Positions 16,577 through 21,292 of a stretch of 37,633 nucleotides of DNA are shown in pieces. How positions within the stretch are numbered: the first letter of the stretch is position 1; every line of letters starts with the position of its first letter. The DNA lies in the NCBI GenBank assembly GCA_038232615.1, contig JBBSNO010000001.1, positions 1-37,633 on the forward strand, given 5' to 3'. A model generated the notes under the pieces. It searched no databases. It was not told the origin of the DNA and saw only the letters and a program-made list of their open reading frames with translations. This DNA is from Actinomycetales bacterium (GTDB lineage: Bacteria; Actinomycetota; Actinomycetes; Actinomycetales; DASROP01). The translations under genes were made by a program, and so were the position numbers.

Positions 16577-16735
16577 ATGACACCTGGCATGAGCAGTGTG
16601 AGCGCCGGGATGCACCGGGCGACGCCAGTGGTCGTCGGGGTGCTCCTGGCCGCCTACGGGCTGGCAGTGCTGCTGGGGACGCCGGGTGCTCCGGGGATCG
16701 TGCTCACCGAAAATGTGGCGCGCCACATTTTCCAC
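16577..16735 (+). pseudogene. 5' fragment of a membrane-sensor GGDEF-type gene interrupted by the RIT element
   Basis: Encodes a hydrophobic N-terminus (...VVVGVLLAAYGLAVLLG...IVLTENVARHIFH). The frame then runs into the element's terminal repeat at 16736. It continues in frame at 20206. Confidence 0.55.
16710..16731. repeat. Perfect 22-bp palindrome AAAATGTGGCGCGCCACATTTT abutting the RIT left end
   Basis: Read directly from the sequence. Each half carries ATGTGGC, the core of the element's CGTTATGTGGCCGGT motif. There is no counterpart outside the right end. Confidence 0.9.
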
Positions 16736-16764
16736 GTTCTGTGCCCGCCCGCGTTATGTGGCCG
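16736..16764 (+). repeat. RIT left terminal inverted repeat (contains motif copy L1, CGTTATGTGGCCG, 16752-16764)
   Basis: Perfect reverse complement of 20177-20205. Confidence 0.9.
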
Positions 16765-16815
16765 TGGGGGTCGACGTCCCTGGCGCGCAGCGATGAACGG
16801 CCAAGCGCGGCCGTT

Positions 16816-16830
16816 ACCGGCCACATAACG
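16816..16830 (-). repeat. RIT left subterminal motif copy L2 (CGTTATGTGGCCGGT in reverse orientation)
   Basis: ACCGGCCACATAACG on the plus strand. Forms an inverted pair with L1 across a 51-nt spacer. Lies 57 nt upstream of the ritA ATG. Confidence 0.85.
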
Positions 16831-16887
16831 TTCGCCGCTCGATGGATGGTGCTTCCTCCACCCCTCACGGAGAGAGGAAGTTGTCCC

Positions 16888-18150
16888 ATGTTGGAGGAGT
16901 ACTTCGTCAGGCCGGCGACGGTCGATCGGATCCGCGGGTCCTGGATCGCCGCAGAGATCGAGAACTACCTGGTGTGGATGGTCGAACGGGGTTACAGCCC
17001 CAAGAGCATCTGGCGTCGAGTCCCGATCGCCTTCGCGTTCGGCGAGTTCGCTGGTGCGCGAGGGGCGAGCGGGATCGGCGAGTTGCCAGCGCAAGTCGAG
17101 ATGTTCGTGGCCGATCGGGTGAGGCGCCACGGAGCCCGCACGGGGTCGACGCGGCCGATGTCGAAGGAGGTCCGGGGTCCTGTCGAGCAGATGCTCTCGG
17201 TTGTGCTCCCTGGCTTCGAGCCCAGCGGCCGGCCGCAGCACGCCCAGCCCTTCGTCGATGTCGTCCCTGGCTTCTTCGACTACCTGGTCGAGGAGCGTGG
17301 CCTTCGCCCGGCCTCGGTGCTTGGCTACCGCCATCATCTCGACCGGTTTGAGGCATACCTGCGAAGGATCGGTGTCGAGTCGATCCGGGAGCTCTCCCCG
17401 ACGATCCTGAGCGCCTTCGTTGTCGAGCGCGCCGCCGCGGGGCTGGCCAAGAGCACGGTGCGCGATGGTGCTGGTGTGCTGCGGGTGTTCCTGCGCTACG
17501 CCCACCGAGAAGGTGTCCTGGTCACCGACCTGAGCGCCGCCGTCGGGTGGCCGCAGGTCTACCGGCTCTCGACCATCCCCCGTTCCATCTCCTGGGACGA
17601 CGTCAACCGGGTCCTGGCCGGGGTCGACCGCAGGACCGCGGCGGGCAGGCGCGACTTCGCCATCTTGCTCCTGCTGGTCACCTACGGCCTGCGCGGCCGC
17701 GAGATCGCCGCGCTCACCCTGGACGACATCGACTGGAAGCGTGAGCGCCTGGCGATCCCCGAGCGCAAAGCCGGCCACTCCACGGCGTTTCCCCTCTCCG
17801 CCGTGGTCGGCGAGGCCATCCTGGACTATCTCCAACACGGACGTCCCGCGACGGCCGATCGCCACGTGTTCTTCCGGGCCACAGCTCCCCGCCAGCCGAT
17901 CGGCGCTGCCGGGGTGTCGTCGCGGGCCCGCCACTACCTGCTCAAGGCAGGTGTCGACGTCCCCCGGCCGGGCTCGCACACCTTGCGCCACTGCGCGGTG
18001 CAGCGTCTCGTCGATGCGCACTTCGACCTGAAGACGATCGGGGACTTCGTCGGGCACCGCTCGGCACGATCGACCGAGGTCTACGCCAAGGTCGCCGTCG
18101 AGGCGTTGCGCGAGGTCGCCCTGGGCGACGGTGAGGCGGTCCTGTCATGA
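16888..18150 (+). CDS. ritA: Tyrosine recombinase, RIT element first gene (RitA-like, long N-terminal domain)
   Basis: 420 aa. GGAGAGAGGAAG RBS 8 nt upstream of ATG 16888. Catalytic Arg in YGLRGREIAAL, HTLRHCAV (HxxR), FVGHRSARSTEVYAKV (His and Tyr). Confidence 0.88.
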   Translation: MLEEYFVRPATVDRIRGSWIAAEIENYLVWMVERGYSPKSIWRRVPIAFAFGEFAGARGASGIGELPAQVEMFVADRVRRHGARTGSTRPMSKEVRGPVEQMLSVVLPGFEPSGRPQHAQPFVDVVPGFFDYLVEERGLRPASVLGYRHHLDRFEAYLRRIGVESIRELSPTILSAFVVERAAAGLAKSTVRDGAGVLRVFLRYAHREGVLVTDLSAAVGWPQVYRLSTIPRSISWDDVNRVLAGVDRRTAAGRRDFAILLLLVTYGLRGREIAALTLDDIDWKRERLAIPERKAGHSTAFPLSAVVGEAILDYLQHGRPATADRHVFFRATAPRQPIGAAGVSSRARHYLLKAGVDVPRPGSHTLRHCAVQRLVDAHFDLKTIGDFVGHRSARSTEVYAKVAVEALREVALGDGEAVLS

Positions 18151-19112
18151 ACGACAGCCTCGTCACCGCCGTCGCCGACTTCTTGGCCCACAAGCGGGCC
18201 CTCGGCCGCAAGTATCTGACCGAGGAGGCGACGCTGCGTCTGCTCCTGGCCTTTACCAGCCAGCACGGGGTGCAGGACCTGGGTCAGCTCACACCCTGCC
18301 TGCTCGATGAGTTCGTCGCCTCCAGGCCCAGGGAGCGAGCCCGCAGCTTCAACCACCTCGTCGGGATCCTCGGCTGCTTCCTGGACTGGGCCGTGACCCA
18401 GCAGCGCCTGGATACGTCGCCGTTGCGCAGCACCCGGCGACGGGACACGGCCCGGCGCCTGCCGTTCCTCTTCGACGCCCCCCGCGCCCGCCAGGTACTC
18501 GAGGCGGCCGCGGCCCTTCCCGACAATGCCAGGGCCACCGATCGCGGGCCGACCTACCACGCCATCTTTGCCCTCTGCTACGGCCTCGGGCTCAGAGCCG
18601 GAGAGGCGTGCGGCCTGCGCGTGGGCGACGTCGACGTCGACCGGCAGCTCCTGGTCGTGCGCGGTGGCAAGTTCGGCAAGAGCCGCCTGGTCCCCCACGG
18701 GCCGCGCCTGGGCAACCTCCTGGCCCGCCAGCTCGACCGCCGAAGGAGCGACGGCACCCCAGAACCTGACGCGCCGCTGTTCAGCTTCGACGGTCGGCGC
18801 AGCGTCCACCCCGGTAGCGCGAGCCAGACCTTCCACCGGCTCGTCGTCGAGCTGGCCTTCCGGGCCCCGGACGGCGTCGAGCCGCCCCATCTTCACTGCC
18901 TGCGTCATTCTTTCGCCGTCGGGTGCCTGCTGCGGTGGTATCGGGACGGTCTCGACCCCTCGACGCGCCTCTACCAGCTCTCGACGTTCATGGGCCACGT
19001 CGACCCCACCTCCACCGCCATCTACCTGACCATCACCCCCGAACTGCTCGTCGAGGCCAACCGGCGATTCGAAGCCTTCGCCGAGCCGGCATGGTCGAAG
19101 GCCAAGCCGTGA
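18147..19112 (+). CDS. ritB: Tyrosine recombinase, RIT element second gene (RitB-like)
   Basis: 321 aa. ATGA overlap with the ritA stop. GLGLRAGEACGL, HCLRHSFAV, FMGHVDPTSTAIYLT. Confidence 0.88.
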   Translation: MNDSLVTAVADFLAHKRALGRKYLTEEATLRLLLAFTSQHGVQDLGQLTPCLLDEFVASRPRERARSFNHLVGILGCFLDWAVTQQRLDTSPLRSTRRRDTARRLPFLFDAPRARQVLEAAAALPDNARATDRGPTYHAIFALCYGLGLRAGEACGLRVGDVDVDRQLLVVRGGKFGKSRLVPHGPRLGNLLARQLDRRRSDGTPEPDAPLFSFDGRRSVHPGSASQTFHRLVVELAFRAPDGVEPPHLHCLRHSFAVGCLLRWYRDGLDPSTRLYQLSTFMGHVDPTSTAIYLTITPELLVEANRRFEAFAEPAWSKAKP

Positions 19113-20119
19113 CCGGCACGCGGCCGCTGGGGCCGCTGGTCCACTCCTTCTTCATCGACCACCTGGTCACCGTGAAGGGGCTGCGGCCCGCGTCGGTGCG
19201 CAGCTACCGCGACACCATCCGGCTCCTGCTGTGCTTCGTGGCCCAGGACAGGAGAACGAAGATCACCAAACTCACCGTCGAGGACCTGAGCTTCGAGCGG
19301 GTCCTGGGCTTCCTGCGCCACCTGGAGGACGACCGCCACAATCATGTCCGGACCCGCAACCAGCGACTGGCGGTGGTGCACACCCTGTTCGACTACATCG
19401 CCAGCCGAGACCCGCAGATGCTCGGCGTCTGCCAGCAGGTGACGGCCATCCCGATGAAGCGGGCAGCCCCCGCCCAGACGCACTTCCTCGAGCGCGACGA
19501 GGTGGAGGCGCTGCTGCGGCACCTGCCCCGCACGGGTCGCCTCGCACTGCGAGACCACGCCCTGCTCCTGTTCCTCTACAACACCGGAGCGCGGGCCCAG
19601 GAAGTGGCCGACCTGCGAGCCGGACACCTCGAGCTCGGAGAAGCCGGCGTAGTCCGCCTCCACGGCAAGGGCGACAAGTGGCGGACCTGCCCACTATGGG
19701 GCCAGACAACGGAACTGCTGGCCGAGCTGCTCGACGCGTCCAACAACCTCCCCCCGATGGACGCCCCCGTCTTCTGTTCGGCGACGGGCGAGGCCCTGAC
19801 GCGGTTCGGCATCTACAAGATCGTGCGGCGCCACGCCGGGCACCTTGACGACCCTCGCACCAACCGCCGGGTCAGTCCACACATCTTCCGCCACACCGCA
19901 GCAATGCACTTGCTCGAGGCCGGCGTCGAGGTGAACGTCATCCGTGGCTGGCTCGGGCACGCCGACCTCACCACGACGAACCGCTACGCCGAGATCAACA
20001 CCAGAGCAAAGATCGAGGCACTTCGAAACACCGAACCGCCCGGTGTTTCGGCGGGACCCCGCACTCGTCCCGTCTGGCGCTCCGACGAGTCGCTGCTCAA
20101 CTGGCTGTCCTCCCTCTGA
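19109..20119 (+). CDS. ritC: Tyrosine recombinase, RIT element third gene (RitC-like)
   Basis: 336 aa from GTG 19109 (GTGA overlap with the ritB stop, GAAGG 7 nt upstream). ATG 19091 is an alternative start. NTGARAQEVADL, HIFRHTAAMHLL, WLGHADLTTTNRYAEI. Confidence 0.86.
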   Translation: MTGTRPLGPLVHSFFIDHLVTVKGLRPASVRSYRDTIRLLLCFVAQDRRTKITKLTVEDLSFERVLGFLRHLEDDRHNHVRTRNQRLAVVHTLFDYIASRDPQMLGVCQQVTAIPMKRAAPAQTHFLERDEVEALLRHLPRTGRLALRDHALLLFLYNTGARAQEVADLRAGHLELGEAGVVRLHGKGDKWRTCPLWGQTTELLAELLDASNNLPPMDAPVFCSATGEALTRFGIYKIVRRHAGHLDDPRTNRRVSPHIFRHTAAMHLLEAGVEVNVIRGWLGHADLTTTNRYAEINTRAKIEALRNTEPPGVSAGPRTRPVWRSDESLLNWLSSL

Positions 20120-20120
20120 T

Positions 20121-20135
20121 CGTTATGTGGCCGGT
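20121..20135 (+). repeat. RIT right subterminal motif copy R1 (CGTTATGTGGCCGGT)
   Basis: Starts 2 nt after the ritC stop codon. Forms an inverted pair with R2 (20175-20189) across a 39-nt spacer that contains a small TGATC-CCAA-GATCA hairpin. Confidence 0.85.
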
Positions 20136-20176
20136 GGCGGAACGTTGATCCCAAGATCACTGGCATCGGCCGTCAC

Positions 20177-20205
20177 CGGCCACATAACGCGGGCGGGCAC
20201 AGAAC
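20177..20205 (-). repeat. RIT right terminal inverted repeat (contains motif copy R2, 20175-20189)
   Basis: Perfect reverse complement of 16736-16764. Confidence 0.9.
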
Positions 20206-20853
20206 CTGGACAACGTGGTCACGACGGTCGCGGCGTTCCTCGCCGCCGGGTGCTGCGTCGCCACGGGCCTGCGGGCCCGCACGCGTGCCCGCGCTGCCTG
20301 GTGGCTGCTGGGCTCGTCCGCCGGGTCGTGGGGGGCGGGTCAGGCGCACTGGTCGGTCAACGAGCTGCTCCTGCACAACCCCGTCCCCTTCCCGTCCCTG
20401 GCGGACGCCGGCTTCCTCGGGTTCCCCGTGCTCGCGGCGGCGGGCCTCTGGCTGACGGCCGGGCGCGCGATCACCTCCGCGTCGCGGCTGCGTGCCGGGA
20501 TGGACGGCGCCCTGGTCGCGGCCGGGGTCTTCACGGCGTCCTGGACGACGGTGCTCGGCCCGGTCTACCGCGGCGGCGCCGACACCCCGTTCGCAGTGGT
20601 CATCTCGGTCGCCTACCCCGTGGGTGACGTGCTCCTCGTCGCCCTCTCGCTCCTGCTGCTCTCCCGCGTCCGTGGCCGACGGCCTCTACGCCCTGGAGGG
20701 GGTGACGGAGTGGTCTCGGTGAGGGTCAGTGTCGGCATCGCCGGCATCGTCCCGGGCGCCGACCTCGACTCGGCAGCCGAGATGCTGATGCGGACGGCCG
20801 ACCACGCCATGTACGCCGACAAGACGGTCCAGAAGATCAGCGCCGACGTCTGA
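20206..20853 (+). pseudogene. 3' fragment of the interrupted membrane-sensor GGDEF gene, additionally carrying an internal deletion
   Basis: The membrane domain (AAWWLLGSSAGSWGAGQAHWSVNELLL..PFPSLADAGFLGFPVLAAAGL...) joins directly to the extreme C-terminus of a GGDEF domain (VSVGIAGIVPGADLDSAAEMLMRTADHAMYADK). The GGDEF motif and most of the domain are absent. Confidence 0.65.
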
Positions 20854-21292
20854 CGACCTGCGCCAGCAGGTCCGCCAGGGTGGGCGGGAAGACCGTCTCG
20901 GTGGTGGCCCGCAGATCGTCGGCCGGCCACCAGCGGTGCTCGAGCACGCTGTCGCGCTTGACCTGGCTCCATCCGGACGGGTCGGGTTCGAAGGCCGCGA
21001 CCCGCACCCCGTAGTAGACGTTGGACTGCACGATGCGACGGCCCATGAAGGTGAAGTCGGAGTCCGTCTCCCCGAGCACCGGCCCGAGGCCGGCCAGGGC
21101 GAGGCCGGTCTCCTCACGGACCTCACGTCGCGCGGCGGCCTCGTCGTCCTCGCCGTCGTCCAGGCCCCCGCCAGGGGTGAACCACCAGGACCCACCGTCC
21201 GGTCGGTGCGGATCGCAACCTCGAAGGAGCAGGACGCGCCCCTGCTCGTCGACGAGCAGGACGCGGGCGGCGCGACGGACGAGGACGGACAT
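20837..21292 (-). CDS. NUDIX hydrolase
   Basis: 151 aa. Nudix box GGGLDDGEDDEAAARREVREETGL (GX5EX7REUXEEXGU). Confidence 0.85.
   Translation of the reverse strand: MSVLVRRAARVLLVDEQGRVLLLRGCDPHRPDGGSWWFTPGGGLDDGEDDEAAARREVREETGLALAGLGPVLGETDSDFTFMGRRIVQSNVYYGVRVAAFEPDPSGWSQVKRDSVLEHRWWPADDLRATTETVFPPTLADLLAQVVRRRR

Follow-up and report, generated by a model that had tools for sequence, protein, structure and literature searches.

The window analysed here is a stretch of 37,633 nucleotides (nt) from the Actinomycetales contig JBBSNO010000001.1, and it holds at positions 16,736 to 20,205 a recombinase-in-trio (RIT) element, in which the tyrosine recombinase genes ritA, ritB and ritC lie in tandem between terminal inverted repeats (IRs). 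An earlier reading made from the letters alone (the sequence-only reading) had described it as an intact, cargo-free RIT with sharply defined and unambiguous ends. The first part of this description was upheld, whereas the ends had to be moved, as an empty orthologous site showed an insert of 3,500 bp that reaches beyond the IR tips. We consider it probable that this is a RIT with a 3,500-bp insert that moves as a palindrome-bearing circle and exchanges strands across four variable nucleotides. The genes and terminal repeats are as follows.

16736-16764, + strand: left terminal inverted repeat (IRL), 29 bp, with the related direct half-sites TTCTGTGCCCG and TTATGTGGCCG 16 bp apart
16888-18150, + strand: ritA, 420 aa, ATG start preceded by GAGAGAGGAA
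18147-19112, + strand: ritB, 321 aa, overlapping ritA by 4 bp (ATGA)
19109-20119, + strand: ritC, 336 aa, overlapping ritB by 4 bp (GTGA)
20177-20205, - strand: right terminal inverted repeat (IRR), 29 bp

The three coupled genes were present in the list of open reading frames (ORFs) with the lengths given before, and their overlaps, ATGA at 18147-18150 and GTGA at 19109-19112, could be read directly from the letters. An alternative in-frame ATG at 19091 would give a RitC of 342 aa; most database homologues are called at 336 aa. The claim of perfect 29-bp repeats also held, with the 29-mer GTTCTGTGCCCGCCCGCGTTATGTGGCCG occurring exactly twice in the window, at 16736-16764 (+) and 20177-20205 (-), and in none of 100 shuffles. 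Similarly, nothing else was found inside the element: its antisense ORFs had no Pfam match, tRNA and Rfam scans detected no RNA gene, and a sigma-70 scan detected no promoter. The element is cargo-free, and its GC content (0.66-0.72) is not distinct from that of the flanks.

RITs consist of three overlapping genes, ritA-ritB-ritC, each belonging to a family of its own. They are recognised by an adjacent trio on one strand with overlaps of 4-8 bp, an IR of 28-34 bp, an adjoining palindrome and a length of ~3.5 kb (PMC3414803). A RitA with two core-binding (CB) domains and a RitC with an extra C-terminal helix have been described (Smyshlyaev 2021, PMC8138268), and rit homologues on plasmid pHG1 were named in PMC2864759. 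We used the trios of pHG1 and of rhizobial (M. loti, R. tropici) and Paraburkholderia (P. sabiae) plasmids as references, and compared blastp scores between proteins of the same position with those across positions. Same-position scores were 109-420 bits for RitA (174 and 109 with PHG134 and PHG129 of pHG1, 420 with M. loti), 99-296 bits for RitB (including 127, 99 and 267) and 166-401 bits for RitC (166 with PHG136 of pHG1, 344 with M. loti, 401 with P. sabiae), whereas all cross-position scores were at most 65 bits. The proteins thus grouped with the RitA, RitB and RitC positions, a grouping on which the sequence-only reading had staked its assignment. All RIT features that we tested were found, namely the trio, the overlaps, the positional families, the CB pair, the RitC tail, the catalytic motif, and the repeats, palindrome and length. 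That such an element moves as a unit was indicated by comparative evidence, which comprised an empty site, a collapsed contig and near-identical copies with different flanks. Judged by these features, the window element is a genuine, intact RIT. It belongs to an actinobacterial lineage that is abundant, and the gene that it interrupts encodes a membrane protein of GGDEF type.

The Pfam family Phage_integrase matched RitA (E 3e-24), RitB (E 1e-16) and RitC (E 8e-31), and RitA and RitC additionally had a SAM-like N-terminal domain in Pfam. The catalytic residues were placed by alignment to XerD and XerA.

RitA domains: extra N-terminal helical CB-like domain, ~1-110; Phage_int_SAM_1 CB domain, 128-209; catalytic domain, 237-403
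RitA catalytic residues: R269, K294 (displaced), H364, R367, H390, Y399
RitB catalytic residues: R150, K175/K178, H250, R253, H284, Y293
RitC catalytic residues: R162, K187/K190, H258, R261, H284, Y293

The full R..HxxR..H/W..Y motif, previously claimed for each gene, was present in all three proteins, with the caveat that the lysine of RitA is displaced, and none of them appears on this alignment to be obviously catalytically dead. The RitA beta-hairpin 291-303 (window 17758-17796) reads PERKAGHSTAFPL; here H297 aligns with the catalytic K172 of XerD, and the invariant K294 lies three residues upstream. In proteobacterial RitA proteins the catalytic lysine is displaced likewise.

In RitA, 125 residues precede the SAM_1 domain as assigned by Pfam, and AlphaFold2 modelled a confident helical domain at residues 1-110, with a predicted local distance difference test (pLDDT) score of 82-95. 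When RitA 18-107 was compared with the second CB domain by hhalign, the E value was 2.4e-4 at a probability of only 44%, and the N-terminus of the pHG1 RitA gave a weak match to Phage_int_SAM_1 (E 0.006). From these models and alignments we hold with moderate, not strong, confidence that RitA would carry two sequential CB domains. A Foldseek search with the RitA model was uninformative, its catalytic half being of low confidence. RitC ends in a conserved tail of ~30 residues past the region of the catalytic tyrosine, in which W323, D326, L329, L330, W332, L333 and L336 are invariant in 32 homologues. The tail pattern W..D..LL.WL..L is kept in proteobacterial RitC, and a helix was predicted at 326-335 with low confidence.

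We found the empty site by fusing both halves of the host ORF and searching with the fused protein. This gave protein P0121, 86% identical, on the 79-kb contig L069, which is syntenic with the window (acyl-CoA dehydrogenase, flavin reductase, membrane gene, then NUDIX) at 80-85% nucleotide identity. The orthologue is uninterrupted (...GLVLIDNVVTT...), so that comparison with a locus lacking the element, as proposed in the sequence-only reading, could be made. The empty site in L069 reads GTGCTG ATC GACAATGTCGTC, and the window junctions read GTGCTC ACC, GAAAATGTGGCGCGCCACATTTTC, CAC, IRL...IRR and CTG GACAACGTGGTC, in this order. Compared with L069, 3,500 bp were inserted: first the 24-bp palindrome, next 3 nt, then the 3,470-bp core that the IRs bound, and finally another 3 nt. 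The insert lies directly 5' of GACAACGTG in the host. This agrees with the published RIT length of "around 3,500 bp" with "sequence variation at the ends" (PMC3414803). The features at the two junctions are listed here.

16577-16708, + strand: 5' part of the interrupted host gene (membrane protein, GGDEF-type C-terminus), ending ...GTG CTC ACC
16706-16708: left variable or 'coupling' triplet ACC, the end of the host gene 5' part
16709-16732, no strand: palindrome, 9-bp arms GAAAATGTG / CACATTTTC around the 6-bp centre GCGCGC
16733-16736, no strand: left 4-nt variable zone, CAC plus the first IRL base G; proposed crossover or coupling region
16811-16833, - strand: inner left copy of CGTTATGTGGCCGG, inverted relative to the copy within IRL
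20118-20140, + strand: inner right copy of CGTTATGTGGCCGG, starting 2 nt past the ritC stop codon
20205-20208, no strand: right 4-nt variable zone, the last IRR base C plus CTG
20206-20853, + strand: 3' remainder of the split host gene; removal of the insert restores the frame with the 5' part
20209-20217, + strand: half-site GACAACGTG of the target, within the host gene; 7/9 positions agree with the palindrome arm GAAAATGTG

No direct target duplication was observed; one codon position, ATC in the orthologue, is filled twice, by ACC on the left and CTG on the right. A 3-bp target duplication was therefore rejected, because the triplets differ in the window and also in L036, L037, L056 and L068. 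The host locus itself appears to be decaying. The 3' part of the GGDEF-type gene is without ~790 bp of the middle when compared with the orthologue (window 20680-20854; L069 6596-7387 and 7538-8680), and an aldo/keto reductase gene that lies between the membrane gene and NUDIX in L069 is absent from the window locus.

The 24-bp palindrome GAAAATGTGGCGCGCCACATTTTC at 16709-16732 is perfect and lies 3 nt outside IRL. It is missing from the empty site in L069 and hence is not host sequence, and we propose that it is a core-type recombination site. One could instead regard the element as a simple 3,470-bp transposon that ends at the tips of the 29-bp repeats, with the palindrome being host sequence or coincidence. 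The repeats are indeed perfect and unique in the window, and the Logan contig L001 begins and ends at the repeat tips plus 1 nt, but L001 stops at the tips because the next bases differ between copies. As the empty site in the orthologue is without the palindrome and 6 further nt, and the palindrome is found with the element in targets and phyla that are unrelated, we regard a simple transposon as very improbable.

Each end of the element has two copies of the 14-nt motif CGTTATGTGGCCGG, one outer and one inner and inverted to each other, which makes four in all. The segments 20118-20140 and 20170-20189 form a 20-nt inverted pair, and the right end (20110-20215), folded as single-stranded DNA (ssDNA), gave a hairpin with a 20-bp stem (z = -4.35), whereas the left end as ssDNA was no better than shuffled sequence (z = -1.5). 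A TGTG core is common to the repeat tip (TTCTGTGSCC), the palindrome arms (AAATGTGK) and the four subterminal repeats (TTATGTGGCC). In L026 the palindrome arm contains the 11-mer TTATGTTCCCG, as does the inner right repeat.

RitA homologues in public data number more than 4,000 at E <1e-10, with an identity of 81-95% among the best 120. Most are on contigs of ~3.4-3.8 kb, as expected of a repeat that breaks assemblies. L001, from another sample, equals window 16736-20206 with 2 mismatches and has the signature of a collapsed repeat. No match to the 26-nt IR tip was found in GTDB species genomes. Relatives were sampled with RitA or RitC proteins, which makes the sample unbiased as to flanks. 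The readable flanks were of two kinds, either 5' gene part-N3-palindrome-N3-IR or IR-N3-GAYAAY, with L026 as the exception to the second kind. This layout recurs in dozens of relatives across several phyla, including pHG1. The complete order of 5' gene part, N3, palindrome, N3, IR..IR, N3 and GAYAAY was seen in L003, L020, L056, L066, L067 and L068. Plasmid RITs of R. tropici and M. loti are laid out alike, their palindrome being GATTACGTGCCCGGGCACGTAATC. The layout was also seen in a gammaproteobacterial chromosome with several copies, at least two of which interrupt genes before "DNG".

A search of 185,579 species genomes with the palindrome alone gave 31 loci, nearly all of them 3-4 nt from a RIT repeat tip, in Actinomycetota, Acidimicrobiia, Alpha-, Gamma- and Deltaproteobacteria, Gemmatimonadales and Eisenbacteria; IMG/VR viral contigs gave no palindrome match. 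On pHG1 (NC_005241.1 ~137,805-137,840; L070 17806-17841) a perfect 36-bp palindrome, AACGCGGTTCATGCCGCTAGCGGCATGAACCGCGTT, lies between an IS66 transposase gene and ritA (PHG141). The transposase frame of IS66 runs on through the first 9 nt of this palindrome (N-A-V). The pHG1 palindrome arm may mimic the IS66 target.

Some relatives showed further peculiarities. The chromosome OZ242031.1 (Ca. Rariloculaceae) has five palindrome loci (L044, L045, L047, L051 and L065) and at least three distinct RIT insertion sites, with the repeat tip GAACTGTGCCC. Both of its copies with a readable far flank cut a gene before 'DNG', and the triplets GTC and GCC beside one copy recur beside another, as expected of carried coupling sequences. 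In L027-L031 (L028 4656 onward) the sequence past the ritC stop is without the usual TTATGTG repeat and runs directly into a tyrosine recombinase pair (357-364 aa and 826 aa). This pair resembles actinobacterial Tn554-like pairs, and the elements appear to be nested or fused. In L021, L022 and L024 ritB is shortened to 262 aa and is followed by a 124-aa resolvase (serine recombinase) gene that replaces ritC.

The conservation of the palindrome bears on whether it could be a functionless footprint of insertion, derived from target or end sequences. The triplets flanking it are reverse-complementary in several copies (ACC/GGT, TAC/GTA, CCG/CGG), which extends the palindrome into target-derived codons as a footprint might, but such symmetry is equally expected from hops between identical insertion sequence (IS) copies. 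Since the 24-bp core is conserved across phyla and unrelated to the varied targets, and the arms resemble the subterminal repeats of the element itself, a footprint is hardly credible. Similarly, we find little reason to believe that the trio is a domesticated or immobile cluster, such as an inversion switch or a resolution system, and we give this a very low probability. The IR architecture would allow inversion in situ, and palindrome-less copies fixed at one locus (L083-L091) indicate that some RITs are stranded. However, the gene split by the window copy is whole in the orthologue, 2 of 3,470 nt separate the window copy from one in another sample, a copy with identical ritA has another coupling triplet, and the three ORFs and their catalytic residues are intact.

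In the 12 distinct insertions with a readable flank, GAYAAY followed the far repeat in all except L026. Of the distinct targets, about four in five are istA genes of IS21, cut between ...FFGGVPxxLV(P/Y/T) and DNLK..., and overall the insertions mostly hit "DN" codons in genes for IS21 or other transposases. GAYAAY codes for the Asp-Asn that is conserved in the catalytic core of IS21 and rve-type transposases, and for this reason most copies lie inside other transposase genes. When palindrome, RIT and 3 nt were removed in silico, full-length IS21 transposases were restored (265 and 177 bits, NCBIfam cutoff 160). Whatever the direction of the rit genes, the palindrome invariably lies 5' within the interrupted gene; L003 is opposite to L020 and L074, and in all of them the palindrome is 5' of istA.

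The nucleotides between palindrome, repeats and target varied. The window has CAC before the first repeat base G, versus CGG before G in L002 and L071, whose ritA is identical. Within one lineage the first repeat base is G or C, and the base beside the repeat tip also varies among near-identical copies. The flanking triplets are equal in some copies (CCC/CCC, CCG/CCG, ACC/ACC, TAT/TAT) and unequal in others (TAC/CTC, TAC/CCG, ACC/CTG), which fits a heteroduplex overlap over variable nucleotides and does not fit a fixed duplication.

In the mechanism that we propose, excision would give a circle with the junction IRR-N4-palindrome-N4-IRL, a symmetric site of ~88 bp with the predicted sequence ...GGGCACAGAA-NNNN-GAAAATGTGGCGCGCCACATTTTC-NNNN-TTCTGTGCCC.... 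Strand exchange would take place across the 4 variable nucleotides between the repeat tip (TTCTGTG...) and the palindrome arm, and the partner target would have the form NNNN-GAYAAY.... Because a symmetric junction could be used from either side, both orientations of the element would arise while the palindrome stays 5' of the target. Heterology in the 4-nt overlap would be tolerated and carried from site to site, like the coupling sequences of Tn916 and Tn554. Speculatively, the three recombinases may divide the sites among them, namely the repeat tip, the palindrome or target arm, and the four subterminal TTATGTGGCC repeats, and the two CB domains of RitA may suit the two half-sites 16 bp apart in each inverted repeat. 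A crossover at the centre of the palindrome, giving attL/attR hybrids, was rejected as the insertion reaction because the right junction is host GACAAC with no half-palindrome. The novel joints are at the outer edge of the palindrome.

We also considered movement via folded ssDNA or a cruciform, with an IRR-palindrome-IRL hairpin as in integron attC sites, CTX phage or strand-biased circularizing elements, and with the trio serving an unusual substrate. The proposed junction is a perfect palindrome of ~88 bp, and the right end has the 20-bp stem described above. In a mobilome study RIT DNA was enriched after exonuclease treatment with no circular junction, and hairpin intermediates were proposed (PMC5737581). 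Similarly, assembled metagenomes gave no circle junction, and RitB and RitC have sub-threshold matches to integron integrase models. However, the left end folds no better than shuffled sequence, the missing assembled 88-bp palindrome is weak evidence, and ordinary double-stranded exchange explains every junction class seen. Hairpin copying as the process that enforces palindrome symmetry was ruled out by the asymmetric palindrome centres of L059 and L064. We therefore find movement via folded DNA unlikely.

Several observations weigh against exchange through a double-stranded, palindrome-bearing circle. The pattern IRR-N4-palindrome-N4-IRL had no match in JGI metagenome contigs, and we infer the circular form. 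As binding elements, the repeat tip and the palindrome arm do not form the normal inverted pair with a spacer of 6-8 bp between them. The models of RitA and RitC are of low confidence outside the N-terminal domains. L026 (4820-8330 on an 898-kb contig), with the palindrome GATTATGTTCCCGGGAACATAATC, the far flank GGAC-CACAGT and a non-transposase target, is a poor fit. As the target consensus consists mostly of IS21 'DN' codons, the insertions are not independent in sequence. Palindrome and IR variants do not strictly co-vary, as L072 has the IRL of the window together with another palindrome variant; this also ruled out that the palindrome variant strictly tracks the element lineage. Additionally, chimeric assembly could account for the contigs with two palindromes, described below, and for the palindrome-less L078, all of them from short-read metagenomes.

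Solo palindromes, palindrome-less RITs and RITs with two palindromes are side products expected from the proposed circle. Solo 24-bp palindromes without a RIT were found in L049 (848-871), L057 (3212-3235), L060 (5905-5928) and L062 (2975-2998), each of them a head-to-head joint between 5' halves that belong to two different istA genes (IS21 transposase); L060 derives from a long-read metagenome-assembled genome, as its isolate name suggests. A palindrome-less RIT between two GAYAAY flanks was seen with both flanks in at least four assemblies (L083-L086), and RITs with a palindrome on both sides in L017 and L052. In the nine contigs L083-L091 (L084 1640-5140) this RIT recurs at one locus, with an inverted 3' part of IS21 on one side and a short remnant, 'PDNEKTV', on the other, after which come metabolic genes that are unrelated. 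It would seem to be either a stranded copy or the outcome of a rearrangement.

RITs, known since 2009, are present in thousands of genomes of many phyla; in the literature that we read, neither how they move nor why they need three recombinases has been demonstrated. The sequence-only reading had called the mechanism open, and in the literature we found no experimental test of RIT mobility (PMC3414803, PMC5737581, PMC10214605). The flanking palindrome was noted in 2012 without interpretation (PMC3414803), and the usual description of three genes between IRs omits this palindromic site that travels with the element. Our analysis adds the base-exact boundary, the element-borne palindromic site and the target rule. 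As far as we checked, this target and site logic has not previously been set out in the literature, and Ricker et al. 2013 may cover part of it. The parts that can be tested are the IRR-N4-palindrome-N4-IRL junction, the 4-nt exchange zone, the NNNN-GAYAAY rule and the three half-site classes versus the three proteins.

More broadly, and as a possibility that falls short of a probable one, RITs might be parasites of transposons. Their palindrome arms would imitate GAYAAY (with another arm for IS66), so that they home into and inactivate transposase genes; the trio would share three sites, exchange would tolerate 4-nt heterology, and side reactions would leave solo palindromes and stranded elements. 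If this is true, side reactions between occupied and empty IS copies would lead to genome rearrangement. Our data suggest that RITs preferentially disrupt other transposase genes and can leave rearrangement scars, which bears on IS annotation and on conflicts between mobile elements.

Among other recombinase systems, no Rit protein reached any NCBIfam equivalog cutoff. The Rit proteins are 'simple' Xer-like recombinases with XerD and XerA as best PDB matches, and the palindrome arms around a 6-bp centre have a dif-like layout. In contrast to XerC/XerD-dif, the Rit recombinases are element-borne and the junctions put the crossover at the outer palindrome edge, not at the centre. The best scores with Xer equivalogs were 124, 91 and 154 bits versus cutoffs of 279-335 (154 versus 335), which argues against Xer dimer resolution. 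Like RITs, Tn554 has tandem tyrosine recombinases, a site-preferring insertion without target duplication, and flanking nucleotides carried from the previous site. However, Tn554 has two recombinases (TnpA and TnpB) and the non-recombinase TnpC, is without terminal inverted repeats and carries resistance cargo, whereas the window element has three recombinases, perfect IRs and no TnpC-like ORF. The Rit proteins also form separate subgroups in the classification of Smyshlyaev 2021 (PMC8138268).

The GInt/SE elements (ginABCD) similarly have an operon of three tyrosine-recombinase-like genes and a circle joint that carries flanking nucleotides, and some of them leave no empty site (PMC10214605). 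They differ by needing a fourth gene (ginD/srap), by having the recombinases at one end of a large cargo island and by being without IRs; in our element the sole NCBIfam trace of GInt/SE was GmtY, at 22.7 bits versus a cutoff of 340, and there was neither a fourth gene nor cargo. Tn916 and CTnDOT are alike in their heterology-tolerant exchange across a short variable segment that travels with the element, but they are large conjugative elements with Xis and a single integrase with an arm-binding domain. The integron integrase model TIGR02249 gave 43-72 bits versus a cutoff of 265, and no cassettes were present in the element.

The closest likeness is to the proteobacterial RITs of C. metallidurans CH34 (ritA1B1C1), C. 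necator pHG1 (PHG134-136) and rhizobial plasmids, which were reportedly described by Van Houdt (2009 and 2012), Janssen (2010) and Ricker (2013). They have in common with the window copy the A-B-C order and the 4-bp overlaps; likewise they are ~3.5 kb long, have an IR of 28-34 bp with an adjoining palindrome, are inserted in genes (often transposase genes) and are cargo-free. The window copy differs from the proteobacterial trios in its protein sequences (33-53% identity) and in its non-transposase target, and no defining feature differs. The element in the window is an ordinary member of this family and a useful model for it, not a new system.

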